Assembly: GCA_973895155.1 (NCBI GenBank)
Contig: OZ316896.1
Coordinates: 22,959,722-23,023,721 of the forward strand
Direction of reading: 5' to 3'
Length of the DNA stretch: 64,000 nt
Source: Marsupella aquatica
Lineage: Eukaryota; Plantae; Marchantiophyta
A program made the position numbers and the translations under genes. Positions 3,395 to 63,439 of the stretch are shown one piece after another (position 1 is the first letter of the stretch; each line of letters starts with the position of its first letter). A model generated the notes under the pieces. It ran no database searches and had not been told where the DNA came from. It saw nothing but the letters and a program-made list of their open reading frames with translations.

Positions 3395-4690
3395 CTGTCT
3401 TCCCCCGAACACAACGCCCGGGGCGCTGTCCGGGGGCGCTGTGTTCGAAAATAGTCAAAACAGGGACTTTAGGCAAAAATGACATTCAAGTGACTATAGG
3501 AGAAAGGTAACCGGCTTGCAACTACTATACGTTACTTTAAAATCGTCCTACACATCCGCTCTTTCAACTTACGAAATCCATCGTCCTTTGAGAAATGTAA
3601 TCTAATTTCAAAATCCTTCATTCTCGAAGAAGTGTGCGCTGTTTCCAAAATGTTAAGCAGTAATCTGGAAGTATCGATATATTGTTCTGTTGTGTGAACT
3701 TTTGACAGACTTTCACATCAACCTCTGACTGATGCCGCGATGTCTCGTCCAAGAAACCCGTAGTACCTACGTGCATAATTAGGTCTGACTACTCACTTTC
3801 TCTATTTTCAATTTTCCATTGCCTTCAAGATCAAGGCACTCCAATAGAAGCAAAGCAGTCTCACGAACATTCCACACTGCATGAAGAAAGATCAAATAAT
3901 TATAGAACTGAGAAAATTGGCCACAGTAAACCAAACAACTGTGAAAAGTGGACAAATATGTTTTACTAACAAAGTGATAATAGTACACTTGGTATGTATG
4001 TTTGTCAGGTTTTGTTTTCTGTTGCAAATTTGATTTCTCCCCTTGTGTAATTTCAGTGGTTCAATTATTTAGCTACACATCCTTTGATTGAGAAAATATT
4101 GTTGGGAAGTCAAAAAACCAAAACTTTCAGAACACACTTCTATGCCTATCATTCCTACTTACACTTTACATGCATCTCACAATGCCAAAATTCAAGCACA
4201 TTTATTACCTTAAATTTGAACATAACCCCACATTTTGAAGACAACGTCACATTTCAAACACAGGCCAAAAAATGAAAACATTGACTTCAAACTTGAACCT
4301 TGGGGGTTTCACTTCCACAAAAATGGCATATCACGTGCGACGAAGGATAGGGTCATTTTATTGGTTCTAAGGGAAGACTTAAGAATTTTTGTAGAAGAAC
4401 AATAGGGTCTTTTTAATTCAATTTTGAGACTTATAAGAACATTAGGGTCTTTTTAATCCAATTTTTAGAAAATTCCAAGAATATTCCAAATTTATAGGGG
4501 TTAATTTTTTTTTAAAAATTCCTACATTTTAGGGGGTCCGAGGCCTAAAAACGTCGCAGGCCATGGGAGGTCCCCATATAGTGAGACCCCTGAGACTTGA
4601 ACACAACGCCCTGGTGCTATATTCGAATAGAGCGCCCCTTGGCTCACTATTCAAATATAGCGCCCAGGCCTTGTGTTTGGGGGAAGATGG
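3395..4690. mobile_element. Non-autonomous Tc1/mariner (pogo-like) element with ~30-bp imperfect TIRs, containing a nested MITE
   Basis: Left end is TA|CTGTCTTCCCCCGAACACAACGCCCGGGGCG. The reverse complement of the right end is TA|CCATCTTCCCCCAAACACAAGGCCTGGGCG. Both ends are flanked by TA. No transposase ORF is recognisable inside. Confidence 0.65.
4299..4594 (+). mobile_element. ~296-bp MITE with 8-bp TSD (hAT-like), subfamily B
   Basis: TIRs CTTGGGGGTTTCAC / GTGAGACCCCTGAG; perfect 8-bp direct repeat ACTTGAAC at 4291-4298 and 4595-4602; AT-rich interior. Confidence 0.85.
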
Positions 4691-6143
4691 TAGTACTCTA
4701 GAGACTGAATGTGGTGACAACATTCAAAAATCTGTTCTTGGACAGCACCAGAAGAAAGCCATCTTCTCCTTTACCCAATCTATTTTTTTTGAGTAGCCAA
4801 ACAAGCACCTTGCGAGAGCCAAAAATGGACCTCATGAGTAAAAATGGACTATATGCAATAGAGGTCACAGTGGACAAACACCAAAGTCAAAACAAGGGGA
4901 CAAACAAGGACAAACCCCAGACACCTAGAAAGAGTAAAAATAACAAGAGATGAAAACTCACCCCTTCAATAATGTGATAAGGTAATAATGTATAGTGTAT
5001 TATTACACTAGATAATACTTGGTGAGGTGATGGTCCATATCTAGACAGTGTAATAATTAATACATGTTGAGGTAATGGCCCCGGGAATGGCCCACATCAA
5101 GTGTTATATTTTATAAAGAACATATTTGTGATTTTAGAATGGGAATATGTTTTTGTCTACTAGACTTCCAATTTTAAGAACAAACCAGAAACAAAAAGCT
5201 AGCCTGGATGGACCAAGTATTGTTCCTGCCCATCCCCGTGCATTGCGTAAAGAGACTGTCGCTTTTACACTGCAAAGAAAAACAAACTTGTCCATCCGGG
5301 CTTTACTTTCAAACAAACCATCTGGGTTTTTTTAAGTTAAGTTCAAAAAATGATGCTCCCATGGACAGAGCTTGTGGACCATGCAATCTGCAAGGACGTG
5401 ACACCTTATACACCTTACTCATTGACATATGCCCTTCTCATTTCCAACAAGTTGCCTAGCCCTCCAGCACTTAGTCACGGAACTCGACTACCTTAACACT
5501 TAGCTCCTGCGTCGCTGACTCCGACGCTGAGCTCCTTAATGGTCCAGGCCCGGATAGGCCATCCAGAGAGGACTTAGCATGGGGAGACTTGTGGGCAATG
5601 GGACGTGGCACTAGCAAAGGCAAGGCGCCAAGCTGGTGTCACGCACTAAGGACTTAGACGAGCTGAGAGCTGGTCGGGTCGAGGGGAAAAGGGCCGGGCT
5701 CAAAGTTGACCGCCCGGACCCCCGGACGGAATTTGAGTTCCGAGGGCTTGAGTGAGAGCTCCTCTTGGGCCCAAGGCCAATGGAGTTGACTCCATGGGCA
5801 ATAGACATTCATTTGGGGCGCGAGTTATGGTCCGATCCGGGTTTGGCCGATCAGGGGCACCAAGTGGCAATGAGATTTGAGGGCCTAGGCATGAGCATTG
5901 GGTCGGCCCGATCACAACGGGCCAAGGCACTCCGCTTGCGGGCGCCTAACTAGGAAGTTATGGGCGTTGCCAGTTGGTGGCATGCCCAGACATGCGGGTT
6001 GGGGTCCAGGTTGGGGGCCAAAACTTTGGGGACCAAAGTTGGTTCGGGGACGGAGGTCTCCAGAAGCACATATGAGGGGAGTGGTGTCTCCCTGGGAGCT
6101 AAGGGCGAGCCAAAATCGTGAGCCACGGCGGTCGCGACACTAA

Positions 6144-6443
6144 CCCGGGGTCCTCACTTATTTTCTTCCGACCATCACGCGCAAATAAGTATAGAGTTTT
6201 TTTATTGGGTTTAGTGAAATACTTTTAAATTTTTGTTGAAGAACATTAGGGTTTACTCCAATCTTGAGAATTATAAGAATCTAGGGTTTTTTTAAATCAA
6301 ATATGGGAATATTCTTGGAATATTCAATTAAGTTAGGGGTAAAAAAATTCCTAAAAAAACTTTATTGACTTAACTTTTAGGGTGTTTATTCCCCCAAAAC
6401 TTAGAGCGTGATATGGGACACCCCTTGGATTGAGGCCCCCGAG
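6144..6443 (+). mobile_element. 300-bp MITE with 8-bp TSD, subfamily A
   Basis: TIRs CCCGGGGTCCTCA / TGAGGCCCCCGAG; flanks GACACTAA / GACATTAA (1 mismatch); near-identical to the copy at 23454-23758. Confidence 0.85.
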
Positions 6444-7956
6444 GACATTAAGGGAAACCGCCAAACAGAAATGGCGAGAACTTCCCAACGAGAAGTTCGT
6501 TGGGGGATTTCTTGGGTGCATTGGAAAGATCTCAAAGAGGGCTAAATCCTCATTAGCTCAGCTGGGTCTGGGGGTGCCATAGGTTCTAGAGGTTTGCGGG
6601 TGCTATCTCGCCCGCTTGCCAAATCCTATCAAAATAGTAGCCAAGCCGTGTTCAGTCTCTCAAGGGAGCTTGCATTGGGGAGGCAAGGCCAAGTAGGCAT
6701 GTAGGTTGATTTTCAAGGGCACTTGGCCCCTAGACCATCAGTGGGGTGAGAACCGGGAGTTGGTTGCTAAAGTCGGGGCCATTCTGGTAGGGACTATAAG
6801 CTTGGGACAAGCTTTAGGACAAGCTACGTTATTTGGGCCCCCTGGGCCCTAAGCGTTACTAATACAGGGAGGATGTGCGAACATCGCAAGGGTATTTTTA
6901 ATGTAATGCAAACTAATTTTTATAATAGTTTTTAAAGTAGGCAACATCCCTGTATATATATTCAGCACAATATTAGTAATAAGGCTCTTATCAAATACAT
7001 GTCACATTAATCTTATGCAAGGGTACCCAAAATGCCAAGTACACGCGTCACTATATGGTTGGCACACATGTCATCACTGTACTTGCGCACATGTTCATAT
7101 AGTAAATCAGACATTTAATTATTTGTCGTCATAAGGCAAATTTGGTTTCGTGGGCTTTAGGAACACTGAGAGGATAGTGCAGCCATGCTTGTCTGTATAC
7201 TACAGGAAGAACTATAACTCTCTGGTACTAATTTTGTTTAACTATATAAAATATGTACCCTAAACAAAGGCGTAACATACAAGTCCCCTATGCAAAATAA
7301 AGTCTTATCTATTTCAGTATGATATTTGCAATTTTAAAAATTCAAGGATGTTTTCAATTCCTTGAAAAACTATATTATAATTTACAAAAGGATAAAATTT
7401 AATAGAAAAAGTTAATATTTTTACATTAACAAGGGGATTTTTTTTGTGAACAAAAATATTAAGAAGGGGTACATGGGGGGTGTCTGTTCTCAGGGGGGTT
7501 CACTTTATATAGTAAGAGTGAGGGCCCAGGGTTTGGGCCATGAGTATATCCTAGGGGAAGAGCGGTCAGTTGGTGATGGATAGATACGAGGGGGAACCCG
7601 GGCTGCGGCCAAGGAAGGAGCTATTCTGGATGAATAGTGGGTGTCGGTTCTGGTTTCGGCTGGCATCGGGAGGACCTATCGCTAAGTAAACCTACTTACC
7701 AATTTCTGTTGAGCTTGAGTTAAGATGCTAGACTTGGGAGATCTAGATCCTGAAGGGTTACTTACTGAGACATTTGGTTGCTTGTGTAGACAGTGAGGAC
7801 CGTTGAGTAGCAATCATGTTGGAGAGCAAGTGCGGCTTTGTATGTGAGGGGCCGCTGGTGGTGCAAGGGCACTAGGTTGCTTGCTCGAGGTATTCAGTGG
7901 AGGTGTTTGGAACCAACCCCAACACCGTGGAGGTTGAGTTCCAATGGCACTTAGGT

Positions 7957-7989
7957 GGCCAAAAGCAAGCTAGAGGGGGTCTAATTTGA
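7957..7989 (+). repeat. Left terminal inverted repeat of the Sola-like element
   Basis: GGCCAAAAGCAAGCTAGAGGGGGTCTAATTTGA, followed by an inverted partial copy AAATAATACCCCTC (~7993-8006). Confidence 0.9.
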
Positions 7990-8740
7990 GCAAAATAATA
8001 CCCCTCCTAATACCACCCCTACCACAAAGCTCATAGTACAGTTAGTACTACAAGTCATGTAATGATGAGGGAGGAGGTTGTTGCAAGTACAATCACGTTG
8101 GAGGGAGGAAGGGCCGAAAAGACATTACTACCGTAACCTCCTATCATTTCAAAATTAGAAAGGTCAGCAAATCCGGACCGTGCCGTGGTGGCAATGAAGA
8201 TCAATGGTGGTGGTTGAGGGAGTAGCATTGTTGGATCTTGACCCTTCCTGCTGAAGGATGATCCAAACCGTAGCATTGCCTGCAATCAAGGGAGACATGG
8301 GCGCAAAGTGCGCACTTCCTTTCTATTTCCTTTTTGTCGCGTTGAATCAACTTTCACGATGCGTACTCCAGTTTGAATGTTGCGCAATGTGCCAGTTGGA
8401 GAAGACCGCAACATTGTGATCCTTGATTAGGTAGCAGGGGAGGGAATGCGGGAGGGAATGACATTGCATTTTGGCGCAGGAAGTTGCTTTTAGTCGAGGG
8501 CTGCAAGCATTTGATTCTCTGGAACTTTTTGCATTCTCGTTTGCGTTGTGGAGATTGAAGAGTTACAGGACCTGAGCTACAATTTTGAAAGTTGAGGACA
8601 TTCGGAAAGTTGCTCTGATTGTTTTCTTCCCCACTTGTTTAATATTGAATGTCTTCTATGATCTAGGCCACGCATTAGGCACACATTCAATCTTTTCAAA
8701 TAAGATGACATTGAACTCACATTCTTGTGTTGTAATTCAG

Positions 8741-11443
8741 GCGCAAGGCACTGGAAGGGACGAGTCAGACTCTGGAGTAACGTGCTTTCAAGGGACTCGG
8801 GCGGAGTCGCATAGCGCAGGTTTGCGCCCAAATAGTTTGTTGCCAACACTTGGAGCGAGCAGCTGGGAGAACTCAAGCTACACAGCAGGTATGTCTTCTG
8901 AAATGCCTGGAAAGTCCACGAGTCACAAGCTACCACCGAAATCACACGGTGAGAGTCTTGTAAAGGTCCCCTCATCAGAAGAGTGGACAGTTGATGAGTT
9001 TGTGAAGGACATCGATCATTTCCACGATGTCCTTGGCTTGCCCAATGTGGGAAGCATTCCGAAGGAGCTCACAAGTGAAGACGTGTCTGCTGAGGTGTTG
9101 GAGGAGTATTTTGGGAACAAGTCTGGGAAGAACGGCTACAAGAAGGATGGCGTTAAGGGGATTCCTGCCGACGACATCGCCATGCTTACCTGTGCGTTGG
9201 ACCGAATCGGAAAGTTTCAACCATACACTGTGGAGGTTGCCAAAGGTTTGTACTATATGAGCGGATCTTAAAAAGACCTGTGAATTGGGCAACTTGTGGT
9301 GCAGACAAGCATAGAGGGCAGCTTCGGTTGAGGTTTGTAAGGAAGTCTCCAATCGATAGAAACTCGCCACCGTGGAAGAGGATTGAGACAAAGTATATCC
9401 CTCCTCTAGACCTCTTCAATAGAATACAGTCCGTTGCGAGTGGAGCACATTGTGAATCACCTGGGGAGGAGAAACCGGCAAACCTAGAGCTCAAGTCACC
9501 CGAAGCCTCGGGTCCTCATTCGAGTAGTCAAAACTTCCCGCAAAACATGAACCAATTGCAGCAAGATACAATATCTCCAGGTAAGGTGTTAGGACTAGAG
9601 GCAAATGAGCAAGAGCAAGGTGAGTCCCTTTCTCAGGTAGGTGGTCCGAATCATGAAATGTCACCAAAAAATAGTTTCATAGGTTTTCCAGAAGCTCAAA
9701 CCAAAAATCTTTGCACTGGAGTCACTACTGGCACGCCAGTTCCACACCATAAGAATACACTTCTTGAAACAATGTTGGAGGTAGTGGAGGCTAGTCTTGC
9801 AGAGCTTGGCCCTGAAATGCAGAAGTCTACACAAGATGCCATTCAATTCACAGCAGCTCAGAATGAGGCTACTGATTGAATCAACTCAATTCAAACGACA
9901 TTGTCAAGGTTGAAAGTGCAAAAGAATGAACTCACTAATATCATCCACGACGTACAGCGACGCATCCATGCTCAGGTCAAAGAGCAAGCTCAAGTATCTG
10001 AGGATCTTGAACTGCTGCAAGATCCTGACGAAGAGCATTCTGAAGACGAGGTAAATGATCTCATTTTGTTTAAAGCTACATTTGTTTTCATATTATCTTT
10101 GTTGAATGTGATTTTCAGTTGCTTATAACAATCCTGTTGTGTTGGCCGGGACTTGTGTAGGCACTTTGCAAAGGGTTGCGAGAAAAATATGTCTCGTGTT
10201 GCAATGAAACAAATATACTGCAAGCAAACTTGGCTGCTTCAAAGCAGAAGCGCATTGATGTAGTCGCAGATGCTCAAGTTCTTATGAAAGAGTTGAATAA
10301 GTTGGATGAGGAACAGGAGTATGGGAAACAGACCTTGCACAAGCTAGATCATACAGCATACAAATTGACAAAGTCCTATGATGCTCTCAATCTAGAGTGC
10401 GCAAGACTAAAGGAGCACTTGAATACCTCTCATGCAATTTGTGTATGCCCTATTAGTATCATTTGTCCTGCGCAGACAGAGGAGGCTTATTTTCCCATAA
10501 GCGAATGCCCTGTTTGCTCTCTTGGCTTCTTTTGTAACAATTGGATTCCCACATCATGTGGACATTGCTATCATCCAAGTTGTTTGTTCCCGTTGCTTCG
10601 AAACGGTGACAGTAAACCTCCTAAGTGTTTAGCCTGTGCTGAAGTGTTTCATCCAGCCTGGCTGAAGTGCTGGGGTTCATCCCGAGTGGACCATCCAGAT
10701 GTAGTGAAGCTAGCAGATGATTGGGGTTTGGAAGAACAATCTATCTCTTTTCAAAAGAGCCTTAGTGATCTGTATTGCAAGAATGCCTTGAATTTAAAGG
10801 GAAGGAGGGAGAATCAAGCCTTGAAGCATAAGAAAGTGACCAAGTTATATTCAAAGGTATATCACTAAACCTGGTCACTCGAGTTGTTGGCATATAGTAT
10901 GATCTGGCTTTGTCGTACATTGGTATTAGCGGGGATATTGGTCAATTGCTAATTGTGGGATATTGTTTTGCGCTGCAGGAAAGTGTGAAGAAGTCTATCG
11001 AATATCATGAGGCTGTTGGTAAAGCTGCACATGTACACCATGAGTTGTTGAGGGTCTCAAAAGTTGACATCAAGTCAGTTCCTACTCTAGTTCAAATGCA
11101 GACTTCAGCCCCGGAGTCCAAGGGTGAGGTGAATCTCTCAATTGTGAAGGTTGAAAAGGGTGCTGCTCCAGAACCTGGTTCGGTCACTCAGGTGGAGAAT
11201 GTCTCTAATGACTCTGAGCCTGGCTCTGAGTCTTGTAAGGGGAGTAGCAAAAAGCGAAAGGCCGAGGAGAAGAATGGCACAAGCTCCTCTCAAGCTAAGG
11301 GGAAGTTAAGGGGTGCTGCTATCAGTCTAGGATTGGATCCTGCTCATGACAAGGGTGGTAATGTTGCCTTAAAGTCAGTTGAAAAGGTTAAACCACCTGT
11401 CAAAGGACGAGGAAGAGGTCGTGGATCAGCTAGGAAATTGTAA
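8741..11443 (+). pseudogene. Transposon passenger gene 1: TE-associated N-terminal domain, coiled coil, RING-H2 finger and basic tail (disrupted)
   Basis: The ORFs can be joined by removing 2 nt in TACTATATGAG (~9255, giving GLYYERILKRPVNWA), reading through an in-frame TGA at 9877-9879, and splicing phase-0 GT-AG introns at 10051-10160 and 10857-10978. RING-H2 is CPVC-x13-CGHCYHPSC-x14-CLAC (~10506-10637). The tail has KKRK and GRGRGRG. The 5' start is uncertain (acceptor at 8740, ATG at 8891). Confidence 0.75.
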
Positions 11444-11759
11444 TAGGTGAGGCTGGGTAATTTAAATAGGACTACTATGTTGACATTGTCGTCTGCCTCT
11501 GAGCATTCATGAACCCTAGATGTCTGTCTAGATACCCAATGTGGATGCATCGATGGTAAATTTTCTTACTCTCCTATTGCTCATCCTTTGTACCAGTCAA
11601 TTTCTATGTATTGTCACAGGTTTATTTGGTTTAGGGTTCACTCACTTCATACATGCATATTATGTAGATTTGAATACTCACTTTACATGCACTACCAGAC
11701 TCAGGTAATTTCTCTGGCTGTGCTTTCATGTCACAGAGTATTTACCTGGTACCTGTGAT

Positions 11760-12240
11760 TGTTACTCTAATACTAAGTATTAGTTTAGTACCTTCGGGTA
11801 TTAGTCTAATACAATAAGGTATTACTGTAAGAGTTTCAGGTGTTAGTCAATTCCTGGTATTTTCATAATACCTCAAGTACTATTATCTCAATACCGTTGA
11901 GTTTTATCTCAATACCATTGAGTATTATCATAATACCATTGAGTATTATCACAATACCGTGTATTATTATCATAATACCTTGTAGTATTGTCACAATACC
12001 GTGTAGTATTATGTAAATACCTTGTAGTATTATGTAAATACCTTGTAGTATTATGTAAATACCTTTGAGTATTATGTACAAGTTACGCGTTTGAGTATTG
12101 TTTCAAATTCCTGCGAGTATTAGTTCAATACCTTTGAGTAGTAGTGTAATCCCTTGAGGATTGTGTCATGTTGTGGTAGTGCAAGCAAGGTTTTGTCATT
12201 GAATATCCATCGGGAATCCTTGAGTATTGATTTGAGTATT
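11760..12240. repeat. Degenerate 21-bp tandem array inside the transposon
   Basis: Units such as ACCTTGTAGTATTATGTAAAT, best preserved at ~11880-12080; explains the spurious (IILxG)n ORF at 11863-12081. Confidence 0.8.
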
Positions 12241-12278
12241 GGACTTGTAGTTTTGCAGGATCTTGTTGACGCAGAAGA

Positions 12279-12902
12279 ATGGGGACTCCTGTAACAGAAG
12301 TTGAGCAGGTCGTGGAAGCAGGGCAGTCTGCTTCATTTTGAGATGTCGTGGTTCATATTGTGAACTTTCATTCAACCTTCCCCCATCCTCGGCGCTTTAT
12401 TTATAAAGCATGCTCACATCGGCTAGGACATGGAGGCATTTGTGGCACATCAAAGGAGCTCGGCCGGCAGGTGTGTGGCCATGCAGGGGAGGGTGTTGAT
12501 ACATATGGTTTTGAAGTTGTGATTGTTGATGCGGTGTTTAAGCAGGCAACCCCCATTCGTGCTGAGATTCGGGATAGCGCTTCAGTCTGGTTGGGGCTAG
12601 GAGCTTCAGACCTACGAGCTTGCACCGAACAGGAGCAGATGGACTACATCCGGGCTGTTGCCTTGCAGTGTCGAAGGTGCTCAGTGGCCTTGGCTGCAAA
12701 AGATGGGGTACTATCAGTGGAAATTTTGTCTCTCCTTGGGGTTCCTACCCATAGTTGGGTCCCCTGGCCTCTCACTGTGACAGTTTCTAGATCCCACCCA
12801 AGGTCCACCAATGTGGAACGATCCCTCGTACCAAGAGGATCTCTCCTTTTGGACCAATTGGAGGGTATTTTAGTCGCACTTCGCCATCAAGGTTTAGATT
12901 AG
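12279..12902 (+). pseudogene. Transposon passenger gene 2: RPA70 C-terminal-like (zinc-ribbon OB-fold) protein with one premature stop
   Basis: ATG at 12279, just after a TTTTGCAG acceptor, is in frame with ORF 12348-12902 except for TGA at 12339-12341. The sequence FIYKACSHRLGHGGICG...VCGH...DTYGFEVVIVD...WLGLGASDL resembles the RPA1 DBD-C pattern (Y.AC....C..K...C..C...Y.l.v.i.D...mG..A..L). Confidence 0.55.
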
Positions 12903-14329
12903 GAATGAGGTGATCTGAGGAGAATGTTTTGGGAATTGTAGAGACATATATAGAGCTGCAATTTTTGCAGTAGTGTTTTTGCATACGGATTTTGTGGCAA
13001 GGATTTTCTACAGGCCCCAACAGTTTAGTGTGGTTCTTTCTATCTCTGCTTGGATTAGTTACAATCAATCAATCTTGTATCCTGTGAGTACTTGATTTAC
13101 TGTACAAAGCTAAAGTCTAGCTTGCATAAATAAATTGAGTGACTACAAGATGTCTCATTTTGTACAAATCTTGATGTATTGGAAACTATAGAGAAATAGA
13201 GTTGCCTACTTGACAATTGCTAGAGTAGTTTTTTTAATCGCGGAAAAGTGAACTGAATTCTACAGGCCAAACAGTTCAATGGATTACATGGATTTGTTAC
13301 AGTCAATTTTGTAATCCGCATGGTATTGCATTTACTATTGAAAGCAACAGGACTTGCACTGTAAATAAACTGAGCAAGTGTTTGTGACTCGTGTTTATGA
13401 AGAAACAATGAATGAGTTTAATTTTTGTTTATAGTCCAAAATGTTGGCCCTTCAACAATGCCAAGCTTTCGACCTATATCCAGGTTGTTGTTTGGATCAT
13501 AATGTAGATGTTAGCGCAATTAGTTATTGTGAGAAACCTTAGAAATTAAGTGAACCCTTCATAGCAATCATTTGCCTTGGAATAGAAAATGCCATTGATG
13601 CTCATAGTGATCTCAGTATGTACACTCATGAAAAAACTGAATGAGTGTACATACTGGTACTGTGAAACAATCATGCTCCTCCTTTGATGATTGAAATAAA
13701 GAAATCAAACTAAGGCAGATCTCAAAAGTATGCTATAACATGCATGGGGGTAAAATAAGATTTGGATGGAGGTTGAGAGCTAAAATTTGCTTCCCTTTGC
13801 AAAGTTCTGGGAACTAAGGCACTACACCGAACAGGAGGAACAGACTAAGGTGATCACCGAATTGAGATAATTAAAGTTGCACCAGAGGTCCAGGAAGGCA
13901 ACAGAGAAGAATATGGACATCCATTGGCATTTGATGAGAACTTTTATAGATTTGATAGACAAGGTTCAAATTGCGTTTCAAGCTTATTCTGAAACAGAAG
14001 CATGATCACAAAATGCTGCTGAACGAAGACACAATGGTCCTGTGGCCACTACTCAACTAGCTAATTCGCTAGCCACAACTCACATGACTAAAATTTATGA
14101 TAAATTATATCCATATCTAGCCAAACAAGGGTAGTGATTGTCGTGCCTCTAGGCAACAAAGAGAGACTCATTATATCACCTGCATGAAAAAAGAGACAGG
14201 TCCAGCAGTTAAAATGTATCAGTGGCTTGCTTTTGCAATATAGCTACTAGTCTCACAACACCCACTACATCAAACACTCAACTGTATAAAACTATTAGCC
14301 TAGGCTATAGTATTGAGTATTGGGTCGGA

Positions 14330-14780
14330 CTGCAAGTACTGAGTACTAAAGCCAGGTCTTGAGTACCAGGTACTCAACGTATTGAGCTCGGTATTAAGTA
14401 CTAGGTACTCAAGGTACTAAGTACTTGATACTCAGGGTACTGAGTACTAGGTACTTAAGGTACTGAGTACTGGGTACTTAAGGTACTGAGTACTGGGTAC
14501 TTATTGGTACTTGGTACTATGTACTCAAGGTACTATGTACTTAAGGTACTGAGTACTAGGTACTTACTTAGGTACTTGGTATTATGTATTGAGTACTAGG
14601 TACTCAAAGTACTGAGTATTTGGTACTTAAGGTACTTACGTTGGTACTGCGTACTTATGGTACTGAGTACTTGGTACATACATAACCAGTACTGGTACTT
14701 AAGGTATTTAATACTTGACTAAGTATTATGTACTAGGTACTATGAGTATTTATTATCAAGTAGGTACTAGAAAAGGCATT
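14330..14780. repeat. GTAC/AGTACT-rich ~23-bp degenerate tandem array inside the transposon
   Basis: Repeated GGTACTGAGTACTAGGTACTTAA-like units. Confidence 0.8.
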
Positions 14781-15251
14781 AAGTATTAGCAAATAAATAT
14801 TACAAGTATTAGCAATAGGTATTACAAAGAAGAACTAGTATTCGGTAAGGAGGAGTTGCAAGCTTACTTGCCACTGAGAATCATGGGCCATGTGCATTGC
14901 GCAGTCATCAAATTGAACACCTGCACACAATAAACTAGATTGGTCAAAGACATGAATCAGTGTACAAGAATGTCACAAAGTGCCTTTTCACAGAGTTTTG
15001 AGATTGAGGGACCAACATCAAGTGAGGACGACCACCTCATAAAACATTAGCATCTGCGCTTTTAATTTGCTTACCTAGAACTTTAGGAGTACAGGTTCAA
15101 TTCAACCACACTCGGATTTCCTCTGCAGTCAATAAAGTTGCAATTAGAATTAAACCAGCACAACCAACAATCTACCCAATGTAACTATTCTCTTCCAATG
15201 AGTGTCTTTAGTGTCTTCAATAAACAGATAAATATTGGCAGTGAAAGAAAA

Positions 15252-18200
15252 TTACCTGTCCGCTGAATCCAAAATTGCTTGATAAGTGTTAGGGGCAAGC
15301 TTGAACCCTGGTGATCCCCTCAGTATTTTTGTTGGCACAAGTCCAAATTTTATGTGAATCACGGATGCCACATCGGCATAGCTAATGCTAGATTTGTCGT
15401 TACGAACAAAGCAAGTCGGATGCCTGCCATATTGCTGAAACCAAGTGCCTGCCAAAACTCGATCGCCCTTATAAAATTCAGCGGAATAGTCGTCTATGAA
15501 ATCATTTTCAACAACATGAGCCTTTTTTGTACACAAAAGAACGTAGAATTCTGCTTTCCAAATGTTGTCTTCTTCAGCCTTCACAGCAAAATAGTCACCC
15601 ACTTCAACTAGATCACCAATGTAGCCCTCGTAATCACAGGTCTCACTATCCAACCCGCCACCCATGTCTTCAATAATGGATGCAATCTCTCCAGCATTTG
15701 GGGTACACATAATCTACCTCCCACGGTAGAACATGAGCCTGATTTTCACAGAGTTCTTGACTTTCTGGATGAAGTGCACAGTTGATGCAGAAGCAAGCCA
15801 ATTCTCTACATTTCAGCATCATGGGATTGTCAGGGCTATATCCCAAAAAGCAATGCTTTTGTCTCACACCTTTGATAGGCAAACATTATAGGCCTGAACT
15901 CCGCTCCACCTCTTGCACACCGACCTCCCAGAAAAAATGCCTCACACCCTGCTTCTTGTCATACTCCATTTGCTTTCCTAGGCAAAACCGTTCCTTAAGA
16001 AACTCGACCACATCCTTGGCACCCTCCATTGGATGCCCTCCTTCTTTCCGCAACTGCTCCGTTCGAAGAGCTTGCTTCACCCCACCTCCTAGTCCATCCT
16101 GTGGAAGCAAGCATACAACAAAAATGCATCAAATCCTGCACGCTAAAAACTTCAAAGCTATCGCATAAATCAGCACGTAAAAATGTAACACTATTACATA
16201 CTATAGACAATGAAGCAAAAAAAGGGTCTGGCAAGTAATTACTTGTACACCTTTCCCATGCCCCGAGGCATGGAAACACCACATTAGTGGGACCCCATAG
16301 TCATGATTGTATTTTGCCACATAGGAAAAAGGGCGGCAAGCTTTAAACTGTGCTGCACACCCGTCTGACCACATAATGTGATTGTCTACAAAAATCTCTT
16401 TCTCTTTCATCCACTTCCAATGGAAATCCAAGCTGTGTTGCACAAAGAAGGTATCATGGCTATTGTCATCTGAAATAAAGAAGTGGTAATCAGCCTCAAT
16501 AAATCTGGTGATCCTCTGGCCCATTTTGTTGTACACCACAGGATCCTCCTCCTCCTTGTCATACTGGTGCCGGTAGGTGATCAGAACAAGAATAGTGACC
16601 TGTCTATTATCCCAGTGAAGGGATTGTACCTCATCTTGCGTTGCAAACGTGTAGTTCTCTGCAAAGTCAATCGAACTCACTATGGTGCCTTTAGGAAAGG
16701 ACTTGAGACAATTCTGGTACTGCTCAGCTTGCCATCTAGCATAGAAGTCATGTTTTATAAACGTTTCTATAGTAGCTGTTACTTTTTCCATAAACACCAC
16801 CATTGAGGTGACTTTAGTTACTAATCTAAGCCTCTTTCTAACCTTGGAAATCTCTGCATCATCACGATTCTGGACTTTCTTCTTTTTGGCACTCTTTGGC
16901 TTTGGTAAATCATCCAGGTTAACATACTCATATGTTTGCCACACCACAAACTCATCCTCTTCATCCACTCTTTCCTCCCACGGACACAACTCTAACAATC
17001 CTGGCCCACAGATCTCACAACTACCTAGTAAACAGTCCCTCTTGTGCCAAAGATCATCCTCTCCTTTCTTACATAAGGTCTGTGCGCACCACTCTCTCAC
17101 AGAGCATTGTGTATACTTGTGAGCTTTGCAAGGTTCATCATAACTATTCAGACTCACATGAGTAGTGGTACTGCAAGTACCGTCGACAACACTACCATCA
17201 ATACTATGACTCACTCCAGCAACAATTATAGGGGAACAAACTACACATTGACATGTGCAACCCACAGGATGTTGAGCTTGTCGTTGCTTGGCAAAGGCTT
17301 TGCAAAGTAGGTGCATCTCAACATGTTGCTTACAACAGCAGACATCCCTATCTTTCATTGTACGTATGAAGTAAGGTTTGAGGGCTTGAAAAGATCGCAA
17401 ACCGATAGTGTAAGCTTTATGTTCTTTCTTCAGCCATTCCTGGAACTTGGAAAAATACTCTGCCTGTCACCATGTGCAACATAAGTGAACAAAATGAGTA
17501 GTGCACAAAATAAACCAATATTGATTACAGACTTGCACTACTACACTTGCAAACTTACTACACGATTAGAAATGAGATGCACTACTACATAATTAGCAAT
17601 TACCTCAGTATCCTCAAGGCGGTGAGTCCTGTGCTCCACATATTCATTCTTTGCAATCCTTTTTCGTACAAAATCCTTCTTGCCTGGATCAGGCCTGGTA
17701 AGCGCCTCCCAGAACCACGCAACATCACCTCGAATCTCCAGAGAAAGGCGATCACTCCTTTCCTTTCGCTGACCCATTGGAAAACGCAGTGTTGCATCAC
17801 CATCTAGCAGAATTCTTTTCTTACTAGCAGCATACACAGATGCCCTTTTGATACACAATGCTCGAGCAAGAGAAGATTGGTATCTTGCATCCACAATCTT
17901 GGGACCTATAAAAGAAGATAGTAGAATATCTTTGGCTGCTTTATGATCTTTACGCCTTGCATACTTGACTATTTTCAAAGTGTTCTTTATATCATCGATA
18001 GCTGTACTCCATGACAGATCCGCTTTAGGGCAGCCTAGTGAAGTGGGGTGCAATTGAACCATTCCCTTATGAGTCCAGAAACGCTCCATGATGATCTTCT
18101 TAGCAGCAAAATTATGTCGTCTTGTTAATTCGGAAAAGTGCTTTACCATCCCAGTGACAACTTGGGTCTGGCTACGGACACTTCTGTTTGGGATATCAGA

Positions 18201-18812
18201 GGCATCATAATTCTCGATTACCTCACCAAGTAGACACCGCTTCCTCAAACGAGACTTCTGTTGTCTCCTTCTAGCTGATGCACGCATAGCCTCTTGAGTT
18301 GCCACCCCTGTTGCATCTCCAAAAGACTGATCATTTGCACTGCACTCCTCCGCTGATCTCAACCTGGACTCCAAATCAATAGTTTGATTCTGCAAGTCAT
18401 GAATTTGGTATTCCAAAGTTGCAAACTCCCCAGCCAATTGTAGCCGAATTTCATCCTTGAAGTTGTCAGCCTGCTCTCTTGCATTAGCAAGCAGCTTCTC
18501 TGCCTCTATTGCAGCCTCTCGTCCAGCCTGAACAAGCAGCTTCTCCGCCTCTATGGTAGCCTTGTGTCTAGCTTGAGCAATCAACTGCTCTACCTCTATT
18601 GCAGCCTTGTGTCTAGCCTTAGCAAGCAACTTCTCGGCCTCTATGGCAGCCTCCTGAATCACCAGCTTCTCTGCCTGCCCCTGAGCATCTTGTAAAGTTT
18701 CTTTGGCATGTGTTCTTACTGCATTCACTGCTTGCCCTGCCCTACGCTCTCTTCTCTTAAAATTTTGTCGGTCTCTTTTGGCTTTCGCTGCTTCATCCCA
18801 AACACTACTCAT
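15252..18812 (-). pseudogene. Sola2-like DDD transposase (spliced; one nonsense codon, one frameshift)
   Basis: Exons are 18812-17604, 17463-16243 and 16098-15252, joined by phase-0 GT-AG introns (RLEDTE|AEYF and GHGKGVQ|DGLGGGVK). Motifs: RDVCCCKQH, IDFAENYTF..QDEVQSLHW, ISDD.SHD, WSDGCAAQFK, GHGKG.QDG.GG.VK, CFCINC. There is an in-frame TAA at 15888-15886 and a frameshift near 15700. The N-terminus has four 15-aa coiled-coil repeats. Confidence 0.85.
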
Positions 18813-19109
18813 GATGTTGGGTTAACACCATGAGATCATGTGTGAGGGTAGAGATTCACCCTACTTCAACCGCCCTTGAGCTACAATGTTTGTTCTCCTA
18901 AACATAGAGTAATGCCACAGAGTAATGAAGGTCTAAACGTAGAGTAATGCCGCAGCTTCCTGTCGCAGAGTAAGGAACATTCACTACGAGGTCAGATGTT
19001 TACAGTCCTTATCCCTTAGACCACAATGCATGGCAATGCGACGCAAAACGCAACATTGAAGCTCCAAACAGGAGCAAAAGAAGGTGAATGTCGAACACGA
19101 AAAGGACAA

Positions 19110-19395
19110 GGTAACACAAAAGTTCTGCAACGCGATGTCCGCGCTTGTTTCTCTCAATGTCTGGGCTTGTTTCTTGCAAGAAAAACTTACAAGTATAGTG
19201 CGTCTGTGAGTACCACTAAATTTCTGCAACATACGCAATGTTTGGGCTTGTTTCTCGCAAGAAAAACTTACTTGGTATAGTGCATCCGTGAGTACCACCA
19301 AATTTCTGCATCGCAATGTCGGGGCAGCTTGTTTCCCTCAAGAAAAAACTTACTCAAGATTAAGAAAAACTTACAGGTGTAGTGCGTCCACGAGT
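19110..19395. repeat. Subterminal direct repeats upstream of the transposase
   Basis: About three degenerate copies of GCTTGTTTCTYGCAAGAAAAACTTAC...TAGTGCRTCYGTGAGTACCAC. Confidence 0.6.
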
Positions 19396-19743
19396 ATATG
19401 ACACGTAACGATGTTTGTAGAAGGACTCACGACCTAACGCGCCATGTACAATGGACTTGGGAACTTGCATAGAGTTCAAACCATAGGGTCAACACGAGTT
19501 ACGAGGTATTTGAATTCCAAGAAAGTACTACTTAAGCTTAGTACCTTAAGTGACAATGTCGGCTGTGGGTAGTGAAGGGCAACACCAAGGAAATCATCAC
19601 CTTTACTTCTTGGGCTACACAGTAATGCTTGTCTAATCTTGGCCACCCATTCAGATACATCTGAGCCCTTCCATGGTCCTTTTTGGTCCTTGTACATTTC
19701 AAGTACCATCCTCTATGGTATTTGAAATGTGACATTTGTGACA

Positions 19744-19776
19744 TCAAATAATACCCCCTCTAGCTTGCTTTTGGCC
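19744..19776 (-). repeat. Right terminal inverted repeat of the Sola-like element
   Basis: Reverse complement reads GGCCAAAAGCAAGCTAGAGGGGGTATTATTTGA. Confidence 0.9.
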
Positions 19777-21749
19777 AGGTACGGGTGTTGGGATTGGTGA
19801 GGGCGCTGGGTGGCAAGGTCCACCATTCACTTTAAGTAAATTTTCAGTAATCTTGGCAAAAGTTTATATTTTAGTTTTAAATGAAAGCCAAAAGAGGAGC
19901 AAACCTTGGTTTTATGGCAAGATATTGAATGTCAAATAGTTTCAAAACAGATTTGGTTTTTTGGTGCTCATTAGAAATTGCTTGGAATTTGTCCAATAAG
20001 CCCAATTTCACTAGGAAATGAGATCTACAAATTTTCAAAGACATAGTATATCATTTTTAACTTAGCATGGATAAGATATACATAGTCCGAGAAAAATGGA
20101 GGATTTCACTCAAATCCAAATCCATCCAGGTTGGAAAAGTCTCATTTTTCCCATATCTCACTGATTGGTGTAATATGTCCCATCAAGAACTATATTACAT
20201 AGTTGCGCCACTTTTTAGAGTGGACGCCATTCAAATTTGCAGCCCGGCAAAAAAATTAAAAACTCTGGTCAAAGGTAAGCAATGAAGCCAAAGTGTGAAT
20301 TGAGTTTAGTGTGACTCACAAAAAGTTGCACCAGTGCCCAAGACAAGCAAGAATAATCACACGAGACAAAAAAAAGAAGCGAAAGACTTTAACACAATGC
20401 AAAAGAGTCAATGCACGAGGATCAAGGAGGATACATCCATATATACAAGTAAGTATTGTAATACTCACATGCAAGTTTGTATTGTACATATTCATTTCTA
20501 CATATTCAATATTGTGTGTGTCACCTGCTTATCAAACAATTTACACGACAAATACATATTTCCTTCTACTAAAATTGTTTGTTATCGTATGATGGGAACA
20601 TGGAGGGACGCTTATTCAGATTCTATTGCACGTAGGATGAGTATGTTTATTTCCGCTCCCGAAAATGTAAGTTTTGATCAAGTCTACCGACTAACCTCTC
20701 AAGTCCCATGGACTACACCACACACACTCCTGCTGGTCGCTGGTGGAGTGTTGTCACCACCCCTCCTACTCGCATGGTTGACCAATCCGTGCAAGGATTC
20801 CTTAGACACTTCTTGGGGAAAGAACACAATCGTGACACAGAAAGATAACGCCACACCAAAACTTCAGGAATCAAACCAAATCCATATCTTTTGGTAAAAA
20901 CAAATCATAACACATTGCAAGGACAACCCTGCCTCCTGTTGTCTGCCTAACTCCTGCCTCACTCGGACAAGTGCTACGCCTCTACCTCACTACTCTGGCT
21001 CGATTCTTCTGGCTATGAGATAACTTCCCTAAACAAACACTAGACTAAGTTCCCCACTTTGCTCACTATGGGGCTCCCCCTAAATACCAAAAAATTACAC
21101 CAAAGCACCCCTCACGGGGTCACAACGATGGCGGCTACCCAAGCGGTGCCGCTAAAACCTTACACAAGAAATCCCTAACCTAAAACATGCAGCACACACA
21201 TGCTCCTAAAACCCTAATCTAACTACGGGACCGACAGTGCCTTTGACGGTGCCAACCAACAAACCGCAATCTGTAGTCTCGGGGAAGTGAGGAGGCCTCC
21301 CATGGTCGAAACCTCAAATATTTCAAACTACTCCCTTGAGGGGAGCCCTGGATAGCCTTGCTCCTCTTGATCACGGTTCCGTAAATGGCATTCAAAACGT
21401 ATCCCGAACGGCCGAGTTACGGGATTCTCAATCCGTAAATCGCAAAAACTCCTAGACTCATAACGTAACTAGCCATCTTGGCTCTGTTTGGGGAGCGCTG
21501 CACCTTGCCAAAATCAGCTTCCCGAGCTCCTTCCAACAAGCCCATGAGTTGACCCTTCCTAGTTATGTCAAAAATCAAAATCTGTACGGCTAACATCCGT
21601 ACAGCCAACTAATCCTCAGTCCTCGGAATCACTAACGGTGTCAAGACTCCATCCCCGGGAATCATTGCTTGCCTCACTATCTCCTTGGGTGGTTGCAGCA
21701 CTTCCTCCCCTCTTCTTCACCTGTGTGGTCCATCTAGACGTTTGGCTCG

Positions 21750-23453: not shown

Positions 23454-23758
23454 CCCGGGGTCCTCACTTCTTTTCTTCCGACCCATCACGCGCGAATAAG
23501 TATAGGGTTTTTTATTGGGTTTAGTGAAATACTTTTAAATTTTTGTTGAAGAACATTAGGGTTATTTTAATACAATTTTGAGAATTATAAGAATCATAGG
23601 GTTTTTTATTATCAAATATGGAAATATTCTTGGAATATTCCATTAAGTTAGGGGTAAAAAAATTCCTAAAAAAACTTTATTGACTTAACTTTTAGGGTGT
23701 TTATTCCCCCAAAACTTTGAGCGTGATACGGGACACCCCTTGGATTGAGGCCCCCGAG
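23454..23758 (+). mobile_element. 305-bp MITE with 8-bp TSD, subfamily A
   Basis: TIRs CCCGGGGTCCTCA / TGAGGCCCCCGAG; perfect TSD CCGACAAG at 23446-23453 and 23759-23766. Confidence 0.9.
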
Positions 23759-24491: not shown

Positions 24492-24813
24492 CTGGGGGGT
24501 CACTATATGGAGGGCCATACATCACATGCGATGTTTTAGGGTTTGACCCCCTAACTTATAAGTGAATTGTTTTTGTTACAAAACCCTTCTTTCTTTAAAT
24601 TTTGTCATTTTTTATTAAAAAACCCCTAAAAACTTTAAAGAAAGTATTTTTTACAATTAAATAGGTCTATGTGTTCTTTAAAGTAGACCAATCATTAAAA
24701 CATGCCCTATGTGTTTTTCCACCAAACTTTGGAAGTCTTCCGCCACACCCATTTAAATGGGCCTATACTTTGTCGCACGTGATGTGCCACTTCCATGGAA
24801 GTGACCCCCCGCG
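24492..24813 (-). mobile_element. ~320-bp MITE, subfamily B, inverted relative to 4299-4594
   Basis: TIRs CTGGGGGGTCAC / GTGACCCCCCGCG; flanks CGTCCCTG / CCTCCCTG (1 mismatch); ends match the 4299 copy in reverse (GGCAYATCACGTGCGAC). Confidence 0.7.
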
Positions 24814-27884: not shown

Positions 27885-28405
27885 TATAGCATGCTCATTC
27901 TGGAACATGTTTGATTTGTTTGTCTTGTAGTGATCTAAAAGTAAATAAAATATGAGAGCATAAAAGTGTTGTTATATAAATAAAGTGTCTGTCAAGAAAA
28001 GCACAGTGACCAAGAAAAAATATTGTTACGATGTGTGCACTTAACTCAGGGTGCCTTATGAATGACACTCCTTTCAATAAAAACCATAAACCTAAGAAAG
28101 AAAAACATGAGGAGAACTTAAGAAATTATGCATTCATGTTCTTTAGTATCATTTCTTTCATTTTTCTCACTCGTGATGGTGAAGCCTTTGGTTTCATCTC
28201 TAAAAAAACACATATTATGAAAAGGGGTTGCCAAAATAAGTTCAAAACACTCTAGAATATTTAAAACTAAAAGGGTCTATAAATTAATTAAAAATGTATA
28301 GAATACAAAGACTACCCCTTGATAGAGCATATTGAAATAAAAATATACACAAAAATCTAAATAAAACAAAATCTGAAATGTGCATTCACCATATATAGCA
28401 GCTCC
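27885..28405 (+). repeat. Dispersed ~550-bp AT-rich repeat, copy 1
   Basis: Begins TATAGCATG..TTGTCTTGTAGTGAT and ends TTCACCAT.TATAGCAGCT, like the copy at 35397-35998; bracketed by the 22-bp direct repeat TTCATCATGGTATGGAGTGGGA. Confidence 0.55.
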
Positions 28406-36182: not shown

Positions 36183-36720
36183 TAGCTATATGGTGAATCT
36201 AACTTTCATGTTTTGTCTTATTGATATTTTTGTATCATGTATTTTTATTTGAATGTACCTTAACAAGGGGCATCCTTCGTATCATATAGACTTTTAATTA
36301 ATTCATTTTTGGACCCCTTCAATTTTTGGTATCCTATAGTATTTTGAGTTTATTTTGGCAGCCCTTTTAATTTTTAAACTTTGTTATCTCCTAGAGAGAA
36401 ACCAAGGGCTTCATTTTCTAATGCTTTTAAGTACTCTCATGAGTGAGAGGAATGATTCCAAGTAATGTAAACACATTGTGTCTTAAGTTCCCCTCATGGC
36501 TTTCTTTCCTAAGTTTATGCTTTTTATTGAAATGAGTGTCATTAAGTAAGGCACATTGAAGTAAAGTGCACAACTTGTAGCATCTGTGTGTCATAAAATT
36601 TAATTATACTTTTCATTGGTCATTATGTGTTTTTATTTGCATGTTCTTTACTTATATTTATTTTATCCCATTCACATTTAATATGTATTCTAGTTTTACT
36701 CTCTAATTTTATTCACTTAC
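36183..36720 (-). repeat. Dispersed AT-rich repeat, copy 3 (inverted)
   Basis: Starts AGCTATATGGTGAA, the reverse complement of the TTCACCATATATAGC end; internal blocks match copy 1 in reverse. Confidence 0.5.
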
Positions 36721-56056: not shown

Positions 56057-58305
56057 CTACTTCTTCTTCGAAGCTTTGCCAGATGGTTTGGAGAAAAGTG
56101 ATTTGTCTAGTTTTTCTACTGGGGTGGTTTTAAGTAAAAACAGCCTAGCTGCACGTTCTGAAAGACTGCCTCCGCATTTTAACCCCCTGTTCTGCAACTC
56201 TGTCTTCAGCCTCTCCAAACCAAGAACCTGTGACACACAACGAAAGGTTGTCACTTCAGGCAACCAAAGTACAGTAGGTAGGCACGTATGGGCTACTCTC
56301 GCTTTGGACAAGCAGTCTTGAGGAGATTGTACACTAGTACAGCGACAGTAGATGCAAATGTCTACTCTGTGAAAGATACTCTGTGAAAGAAGTAGACTGA
56401 GATAGAACAGCTATACAAAATGAGTTATCTGATTCAAGAGTTTATAACCTACCTCCAAATGTTTCGATGTGTTGTAGTTCTCAAAGTCCACAGCTCTTGC
56501 GACATCGTTCTCCACTCTCGAACTAGGAACACCAACAGGGGAGGCCTCAACAGTCCCGTCGGAAACGCTAGGGATTTGACACTCAGTGTCCATCCTGGTG
56601 AAGGTTGACTGCTCAATAACCTCATTGCCAGTGCTCGAGTCTGGGGAACCTCTGGACGGTTCTGGATACTCGAGAGTAATCTCTACAGCTTCCGATGAAC
56701 GAGTTTGGACAAGGGTCTCCACGCTGCTTTCTTGCTCGTGAACCCTTTTAGAGAGATCTGCAACTTCATCAGAGCTGGAAGACCCAGCCTCATCTTTTGT
56801 GGAGCACGATGCACTAGCCTCACCTTTATCGGAGCTACTGGAGCCCGGCTCATCATTGTTAAAAGAGGAAGGACCAGCACCGTCTTCTTCATCAGAATCC
56901 TCTTCCTCGTCCTCCTCCAATTCCGGACTCCTGAATATAACATGACCGGAAATAAGGATTGGGTTCGAATTTCAATGCCAAAATATGAATGAACTAAACC
57001 TGTGACCCTAGAAGGTAAAAGGAAGATCCCACCCGACCGAAGTACGCCATTTAGTTCTTTCACTGTAGAGAAACATCCCCGACAACGATAGGTTGTCAAG
57101 GAAGAAACCTAAACCAATAAGACCCCTAATATCAAGCAGTCAAATCCAGGTCGGCAAAGACTATCAATAGCGACAAATTTAGAATCAGAATGTCTGCATA
57201 AAATGGATGAAATGAAATGAAGGAATGAAATCGTTGAAATAAACGAATGACTATATGATTGAAGAAAATGGTTAAAATGACTGAACGAATAACTAAAATG
57301 GTTGCATGAATTACTAAACCCCATAAAACATGCGAGACTTAATAATTCAACTTGTTAAGGTCAAGCTTCGGCTGACAGGACCTTCTGTGGGTTTTTGATC
57401 TCCAATTCCATTATGTCAATTTTAGCACTTCAACTTAATAGAAAGCTGCTTATTTAGAATTCTGTCAGGGATGGAGGTGCATTCTCTCTAGACCCGGCAG
57501 TACAGCGGAACTTAGCCTGCGGACACTAAACTCTGTAATCTACAGTGGGATTTGAATCCCTGACCAGAGAAAGCAAACAGTAGAATCAACTTCTCAGGCT
57601 GGGAGCAGATCCAAAGAGAGGGGATAAGTAACAAGGCGAGCTGCAAGAGTAAATGGAGAGGATAGAGGCGGCTTACCATCTACGATGCCTCTTCACCTCG
57701 TTTTCCACAGCCAAAACCTTCTTCCTCTTTAAGCTCACTGCCAATTTCGCACCTTCGGCAAGGCCATCCTGCACCGCTGAGCCGATCTCTTCCCTCACTA
57801 CTAAGCTCTCCTCCCTGAACTTCTGCAGCTCTTTTTCCATCCCTTTGTCCTCTTCCTCCACCTTCCTCTGCTTCTTCAGGAAATCTTCCGCCGTCTTCTC
57901 CAATTCTCTCTCCTTGGCATCCGACTTCCAATCTTTGAGCTTCTTCTCCGCATTAACGTGGCGGAGCCTCCTCCCACTCATGTCGCGACAGGCATCGAAA
58001 TTGCTGGTTTTCTTCTGTCCCGCTTTGGTCGCCGCACCTCTCAGAAGAGATCCGAAACCTCCCTTTCCGCCTCGCAATCGCAGCAACAAAGTGCACGACG
58101 GGAAAAACCCGTCGGCTCCAGCAACCAGACAGCTCCCGCTGCCCAGCTCTCGTGTTCCTGACACCAACCGTTGCAGATCTCCAGGAACGCCCTCGCTGGC
58201 AGCCAACTTCGACTTCACATCCTCACAAGAAACCTGCCTCGATGTAAAACGCAAGCATCGAGTCTTCCCATCCAAATTCCTCACCAGCATCTGAAACATC
58301 GCCAT
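56057..58305 (-). CDS. SDE2: Replication stress response / splicing regulator SDE2 (Ubl-SDE2-SAP), 3 exons
   Basis: Ubiquitin-like N-terminus with LRGG|[10 protein letters not shown] cleavage site, [17 protein letters not shown], and C-terminal SAP domain [29 protein letters not shown]; exons 58305-57677, 56930-56453 and 56227-56057. Confidence 0.95.
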
Positions 58306-58414
58306 CTTCTTTGCTCTCCTCCGCGACCTCCGCCACACCCAGCAGCGATTGCAGAAATTGTCTCTGCTCTTCAAATCCTAGATTCTAGCTCGTGAGAAAG
58401 CCGTAGTCAGAAGT

Positions 58415-62793: not shown

Positions 62794-63439
62794 TCCTCTG
62801 GCACGGGTGATGGAAATCGGACGGGTAGCCGAGGAGGAGGGAGAGCCGGTGAGCCGTGACCGAGGAGGAGGGAGAACCAAGGAAAAAGATGCATTTATTT
62901 AGTCTTCTTGTGGCGGTGCAATTAATAGTGTCTCTTATTGTATCCACACCTTCCCTCAGCAGCAGCAGCGAGCTTCTCAGTTCTCAGCCTCCTCTCACCG
63001 AGCACAATCAGACTCCATTAGCAAGGCGTGCATGGCATGGCTTGGTAATGTAATGTAGCCAAGGATTCTCTCACGAGAAAGATGGTCTGTCATTAGCTTT
63101 GATCCCTCTCTAGACGTAGAGAACTCGTCTCATGAGCTGAAGAGTGGCATGTCTCAGTAGAAAGCTTGCATGATAAGTAGGGCCGTCCATAGCTGCTCGG
63201 GTAATGTGACTTCGTTCGTGAGAGGAAGCAGAGGAGGATCGAGGAGCATCAGGTTTTAGTAGCTCTGTGCAGTTTGTGGTTGATGGACAAATGCTCCTTT
63301 GAGACGAGCTGCAGGGGATCGAGGTTGGAGCTTTGGCAGGAGTGTCTTCTTGCTTTTGTTCATCAGATCCGACTGGATTAAGGTAATGCGATTTTGAGAA
63401 CGAAAGGGGCAGAGGATCGAGTGGGGAGGCGGGGGGAAA

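Follow-up and report, generated by a model that had tools for sequence, protein, structure and literature searches.

A disabled 11.8-kb Sola2-type transposon in the liverwort Marsupella aquatica and its facing RING-H2-type gene, a likely ancient helper

A 64,000-nucleotide stretch of the genome of the liverwort Marsupella aquatica (contig OZ316896.1, positions 22,959,722 to 23,023,721 of the forward strand; herein referred to as the window) contains an 11,820-bp DNA transposon, lodged in a high-copy repeat, that carries a minus-strand transposase gene and two plus-strand genes (herein gene A and gene B) pointing toward it. We read it as a disabled Sola2-type element with a 4-bp target site duplication (TSD) in which gene A, which encodes a RING-H2-type finger, is likely an ancient element-encoded helper, a reading to which we assign a probability of roughly 0.72. 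The element itself is real, recently inserted and complete in outline, and it is broken in this copy. Gene A recurs beside very distant relatives of the transposase and is thus likely an ancient transposition helper rather than a captured passenger.

Ends, Transposase, and State of the Copy

The terminal inverted repeats (TIRs) of the element agree at 31 of 33 bases, the first 24 of them perfectly, and their length falls within the 11-1124 bp reported for the Sola superfamily (PMC10741241). AGGT stands on each side, in keeping with the 4-bp TSD of the superfamily (chance agreement of one given 4-mer, 1/256). Contigs of three runs bridge the left and right flanks across ~11.9 kb, that is, without the element, and a loose-end consensus at 19783 (44 contigs in run X2 and 26 in run X6) equals in length the site rebuilt with one AGGT. 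These empty sites are paralogous copies of the host repeat rather than an orthologous allele; because they carry AGGT singly, at the length of the rebuilt site, the 4-bp duplication is supported. Both flanks are a very high-copy repeat, with depth in the thousands versus 110-250 inside the element (run X1).

The spliced transposase gene contains two GT-AG introns (17603/17464 and 16242/16099), removal of which gives 810 in-frame codons with no stop, and a further exon would add ~281. The catalytic residues D669, D735, and D770 (codons at 16668, 16470, and 16365) lie in DFAENY, SD, and SDG motifs within the series F..LKP, CCC..H, DFAENY, QDEVQS.HW, SD...HD, SDG.A.QFK, and HGKG..DG.GG.VK, whose order and spacing agree, in a comparison by eye, with the published Sola2 alignment (PMC3627910 Additional file 10); both the DDD triad of the superfamily and the motif series of the group are hence present. 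The N-terminus carries a 15-aa helical repeat (18486-18653). A Pfam search of the transposase returned no transposase family, and Sola transposases give no Pfam match (PMC5751038). Calypogeia fissa (46% and 41%) and Klebsormidium nitens (38%) supply the closest named proteins, 3,125 representatives match the transposase at E up to 0.001, and the viral contigs searched held no relative of either it or gene B. In a quick tree of 63 of ~190 rows, the window transposase groups with locus L001 (support 100) and the Calypogeia pair (98 in the Shimodaira-Hasegawa-like approximate likelihood ratio test), and a larger group (92) adds Klebsormidium and most metagenome loci; the tree contains no named Sola reference, so membership in Sola2 rests on the motifs, by which we assign the transposase to the Sola superfamily, Sola2 type. 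Judged from open reading frame ends, the first intron (window 17603) apparently falls at the same codon in the diverged loci L002, L005, L006, L007, and L018.

All three genes are damaged. The transposase frame is interrupted by an in-frame TAA (15886-15888) and shifted near 15696; the frame of gene A is shifted near 9255 and contains a TGA (9877-9879), and that of gene B contains a TGA (12339-12341). The two lesions in the transposase deprive this copy of autonomy. The transposase frameshift looks private to it, because most contigs (all depth in runs X1 and X2, and 1657/2207 in X4) carry two extra bases at 15696 that restore the open frame. Between 75% and 80% of words were found in four runs (two organism labels, two studies), and contig depth was examined in four of the six listed runs (X1, X2, X4, and X6). 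Near-identical contigs over gene A, the spacer and the transposase have depths of 110-124 (X1) and 159-198 (X2), with comparable values in the gene B bin (152 and 238, respectively), against 20-24 for diverged relatives and 20.4 for a difference-free, locus-specific flank contig; these depths, which are no copy number, hint at 5-10 young near-identical copies carrying all three genes. In run X6, gene A and the transposase appear as diverged pieces only and gene B is barely covered, which is no proof of absence.

These results bear on an original prediction, made from the window's letters, of a complete three-gene Sola2-like transposon. Its 33-bp TIRs and AGGT duplication, its Sola2-type DDD transposase and the layout of a spliced minus-strand gene faced by two plus-strand genes are all borne out. 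The word "complete" holds for the outline of the element and fails for the integrity of its genes, and the empty AGGT site that it proposed to look for was found in paralogous host repeats, none of them an orthologous allele.

Table 1. Coordinates of the features of the element within the window.
Feature	Position	Strand	Basis
Left TSD, AGGT	7953..7956	+	Sequence; site single in paralogous empty repeats
Left TIR, 33 bp, GGCC start	7957..7989	+	Sequence
Gene A, predicted ~773 aa	8891..11443	+	Sequence, homologues
Gene A exons (upstream exon possible from acceptor 8740)	8891-10050, 10161-10856, 10979-11443	+	
Gene A, RING-H2-spaced zinc finger (C3H2C3)	10503..10640	+	Sequence; Pfam zf-RING_2 E 0.023, below cut-off
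21-bp tandem array, ~12 copies, between genes A and B	11877..12140	.	Repeat search
Gene B, 207 codons, predicted OB fold with zinc ribbon (RPA70C-like, weak)	12279..12902	+	Homologue P0158; Atlas lead
23-bp GGTACT-rich tandem array, downstream of transposase	14390..14710	.	Repeat search
Sola2-type DDD transposase, ~1,100 aa	15255..18812	-	Sequence, splice sites, motifs
Transposase exons (short additional exon probable)	18812-17604, 17463-16243, 16098-15256	-	
81-bp tandem repeat, 2.5 copies, upstream of transposase	19155..19354	.	Repeat search
Right TIR	19744..19776	-	Sequence
Right TSD, AGGT	19777..19780	+	Sequence

Gene A beside Related Transposases

The predicted product of gene A opens with an N-terminal "NGY..NW" domain, which a linker separates from a coiled coil; then come a RING-H2-type finger, an HxxW and a tail that is basic and RG-rich. 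The finger has the spacing C-x2-C-x13-C-x-H-x2-H-x2-C-x14-C-x2-C, and its CxHxYHxxC segment is kept in the homologues. The RING-H2 label given at the outset thus agrees with the spacing and falls short in the profile score (15.4 bits versus the Pfam cut-off of 27.3; 16.5 for the homologue at locus L006 and 24.0 at L017); ubiquitin ligase activity is predicted. Among longer proteins, the RING exon has no homologue. The N-terminal domain matched no Pfam family and no PDB sequence, and its structure model (predicted local distance difference test, pLDDT, 51) found no Foldseek match (best Z 3.0).

A metagenome scan recovered 104 transposase relatives, of which 80 loci in 41 clusters were kept. Searches with tblastn found gene A and gene B at none of the 80. 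Reading of frames revealed facing genes of the gene A build in L006, L007, and L015, and gene A was detected only by profiles seeded on these three. With the profiles, the finger, the N-terminal domain or both were found in 7 of the 18 clusters with at least 4 kb of downstream sequence, always on the facing strand, and in none of the 15 clusters with at least 4 kb upstream (127 kb; Fisher p 0.009, or 0.043 minus the two seed clusters). The transposases next to these homologues share 29-38% identity with that of the window. Against a profile from which it was left out, the window's own N-terminal domain reaches 20.0 bits, compared with at most 6.4 in 2,000 shuffles. For L007 versus L015, a single pair, the ratio of nonsynonymous to synonymous substitution rates (dN/dS) is 0.26 in the N-terminal domain, 0.36 in the coiled coil, and 0.64 in the linker, with 0.11 in the transposase. 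Since it has been under purifying selection in that pair, gene A is, as far as comparison of sequences can tell, a lineage-wide accessory gene. The concern that the RING gene might be a one-off capture is thereby met by its recurrence, and the proposed multi-gene plant lineage survives as a transposase plus a facing gene A; the three-gene set is family-specific.

Several findings weigh against this reading. No gene A domain was detected in 11 of the 18 clusters with enough downstream flank (many of them decayed). At L005, a facing NIF/FCP1-like phosphatase (5322-6104, minus strand; Pfam E 4e-6) occupies the position of gene A, and at L017 the downstream gene with a coiled coil and a RING (3658-4917, plus strand; Pfam E 5e-5) shares the strand of the transposase. 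In L007 and L015 no RING was detected, and the match of the window to the N-terminal profile covers 42 residues only. The RING signature usually ends in CPxCR, which the finger of gene A lacks. No convincing TIR-TSD pair was found in 36 long related loci, which yielded chance-level pairs only; gene A is therefore linked to the transposase there rather than placed inside element ends. Gene B has a single homologue cluster. As for the hint of several young copies, depth is uneven in run X4, no contig spans the element, and one run may be the window's own source.

Among the distant relatives, L064 and L076 (~6.3 kb) have inverted repeats of 18-20 bp after GGCTAA near their contig ends, resembling the GGCCAA start of the window element.

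Possible Roles of Genes A and B

In intact copies, the transposase would bind the TIRs, excise the element and insert it at a 4-nt staggered cut, a cut-and-paste route suggested by the biology of DDE/D transposases together with the ends seen here; the present copy would be mobile only with the enzyme supplied in trans. We hypothesize that gene A is an anti-silencing helper, a role that we rank above cofactor or cargo while placing it at somewhat less than even odds. Its product would act in the nucleus: the N-terminal domain would bind the tandem arrays inside the element, the coiled coil would mediate oligomerization, and the RING-H2 finger would recruit a ubiquitin-conjugating enzyme (E2) or a chromatin partner. 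The element would thereby evade silencing by the host, as VANDAL does through VANC. The 21-bp and 23-bp arrays have a common AGTA(C/T)T core, L002, L003, and L006 also have tandem arrays on the downstream side of their transposases, and the targets of VANC are often tandem repeats (PMC5735166). The likeness to VANDAL/VANC and MuDR/MURB is a functional analogy only: these plant TIR elements likewise have several genes, accessory proteins and internal arrays (PMC5735166, PMC12973397), but they belong to the Mutator superfamily, and Pfam, PDB, and Foldseek comparisons gave no sequence or fold link between gene A and VANC or MURB.

Gene A could instead act directly in the transpososome as a cofactor, in the manner of MURB or TnpA of CACTA, its coiled coil binding the N-terminal coiled-coil repeats of the transposase and its RING acting structurally or controlling transposase turnover. 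The conserved facing position of gene A and the helical repeat with which the transposase begins would suit such a partnership, as would the precedent of MURB, which is bound by the variable N-terminus of MURA (PMC12973397). However, related elements have other genes in this position or none detectable, so that gene A cannot be essential throughout the lineage, and we regard a cofactor role as rather unlikely, if the nearest competitor of an anti-silencing one.

It is improbable that genes A and B are both hitch-hiking cargo of a Pack-type capture, devoid of a role in transposition and kept only through recent amplification. Cargo fits gene B, which has a single homologue cluster and was found at none of the 80 loci, and passengers are known to be swapped among Sola2 elements (PMC3627910); for gene A, however, domain order and orientation are unchanged next to transposases as divergent as those described above, with dN/dS well under 1 in the L007-L015 pair. 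Least credible of all is that gene A is part of another mobile element or of a repeat family and lies near Sola2 transposases by chance in repeat-rich regions, as the variable distance between the two (2.5 to 8.6 kb) and the lack of TIRs found in the relatives might suggest, given that every match is downstream and facing, with none upstream, and that a single TIR pair encloses both genes in the window.

Gene B is a real gene, because its one homologue (P0158, 71%) is open through the stop of the window copy. Neither gene B nor P0158 has a Pfam or PDB sequence match. Atlas features place P0158 in OB-fold clusters (0.77-0.81) with Rep_fac-A_C second (0.80), values below the reliable range, and return nothing for the window piece; the structure model of gene B is poor (pLDDT 35). 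P0158 carries a YKAC..C..CxH pattern, but at two conserved positions close to it the window shows S and I. The original prediction of an RPA-like passenger is accordingly upheld as to a second plus-strand gene, and "RPA-like" is a plausible label drawn from a weak OB-fold/RPA70C lead; binding of single-stranded DNA is predicted. With less confidence than we attach to the proposed role of gene A, we suggest that gene B may derive from an RPA70C-type OB fold captured later and by this family alone, which would bind single-stranded DNA where excision or insertion leaves a gap. A bolder combination, which we consider doubtful as a whole, is that the Sola2 elements of streptophytes make up an ancient, undescribed branch with two genes, in which the conserved gene A, a RING E3 ligase whose DNA-binding domain is new, would read the arrays and remove silencing factors, and to which this family, still active, would have added the OB fold.

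Relation to Known Transposons and Sequence Context

The window element shares with the Sola2 group the motifs DF(A/S)ENY, QDEVQS.HW, SD...HD, SDG.A.Q(Y/F)K, and HGK...DG.GG.VK, the upstream cysteine clusters, a 4-bp TSD and G...C ends, and differs from it in its spliced gene, its helical-repeat N-terminus and its two further genes. The TSD of amoebozoan Sola2 is AT-rich (AWWT), whereas that of the window is AGGT, seen at one site only. We take Sola2 termini to be GRG; those of the window element are GGC. Because published amoebozoan ends vary (GAA, GAG, GTT; PMC3627910), GRG termini may not define the group.

Sola elements are reported to span 2-9 kb, with some >15 kb, and to be present in Physcomitrella (PMC10741241), where they are Sola1 (PMC9033089), and in ferns (PMC6786969). 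The closest published parallels are plant Sola clusters 4006-4009, from Ceratodon purpureus (twice), Rhytidiadelphus loreus and Cibotium barometz, with 2-19 copies and a Sola2 domain in two rows (PMC12973397 Table S2). These recently active clusters resemble the window element in belonging to non-seed land plants and in their lengths of 9.9-11.2 kb, TIRs of 26-32 bp, 4-bp TSD and GG termini; they differ in their GGGTG termini, and the comparison is with table rows that name the Sola domain only, the four rows being the one place where that source uses the word Sola (PMC12973397). Passengers are likewise documented: amoebozoan Sola2-Fanzor1 elements (DFa-1/2/3 and PPa-1/4/5) combine TIRs of 12-21 bp and a 4-bp TSD with a transposase and an exchangeable second gene, which is TnpB-like rather than a RING or OB-fold protein (PMC3627910). 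Plant Helitrons are DNA transposons with an RPA-like gene (PMC5148889), but they are rolling-circle elements without TIR-TSD ends, unlike the window element, which would be cut-and-paste and whose RPA likeness is weak.

The novelty once claimed for short TIRs, large size and occurrence in a land plant is thus forestalled by clusters 4006-4009, and that of a passenger gene in Sola by Sola2-Fanzor1. What appears unpublished is the conserved facing RING gene, which was found undescribed within our literature search; Bao et al. 2009 and Repbase lie outside its coverage and may hold such elements. Sola is one of the least studied transposon superfamilies, and plant Sola elements of 10-12 kb far exceed the needs of a transposase gene; a conserved facing gene would account for that size and would add an accessory protein family that joins an unnamed domain to a RING-H2 finger. 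A young family whose sister copies may be intact is a candidate tagging tool for non-seed plants, and the bolder combination, if true, would be a ubiquitin-based anti-silencing system testable in moss or liverwort models.

The host repeat around the element (~6800-7956 and 19777-19825) stops sharply at 19825 in CA, with loose ends in 34-114 contigs per run, and this end resembles that of a putative long terminal repeat. The empty target sits within an imperfect hairpin. The same host repeat holds a 692-bp, hAT-like insert (6840-7531) that resembles a miniature inverted-repeat transposable element, has 11-bp TIRs and an 8-bp TSD (6832-6839 and 7532-7539), and is skipped by contigs. The whole region is bracketed by a direct repeat (93%; 6144-6443 and 23454-23758) and an inverted repeat (75%; 4303-4417 and 24694-24810), which suggests further nesting.

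Elsewhere in the window, a long imperfect inverted repeat (72%; 28034-28395 and 36187-36572) surrounds a gene on the minus strand that has 90-bp repeats in its coding sequence, an alpha-kinase domain (Pfam E 9e-35) and, by eye, a VWA-like motif; the whole may be an ancient foldback element that carries the kinase as cargo. Ordinary host genes are SDE2 (57676-58377, minus strand) and an ELO elongase (63398-64000, plus strand).

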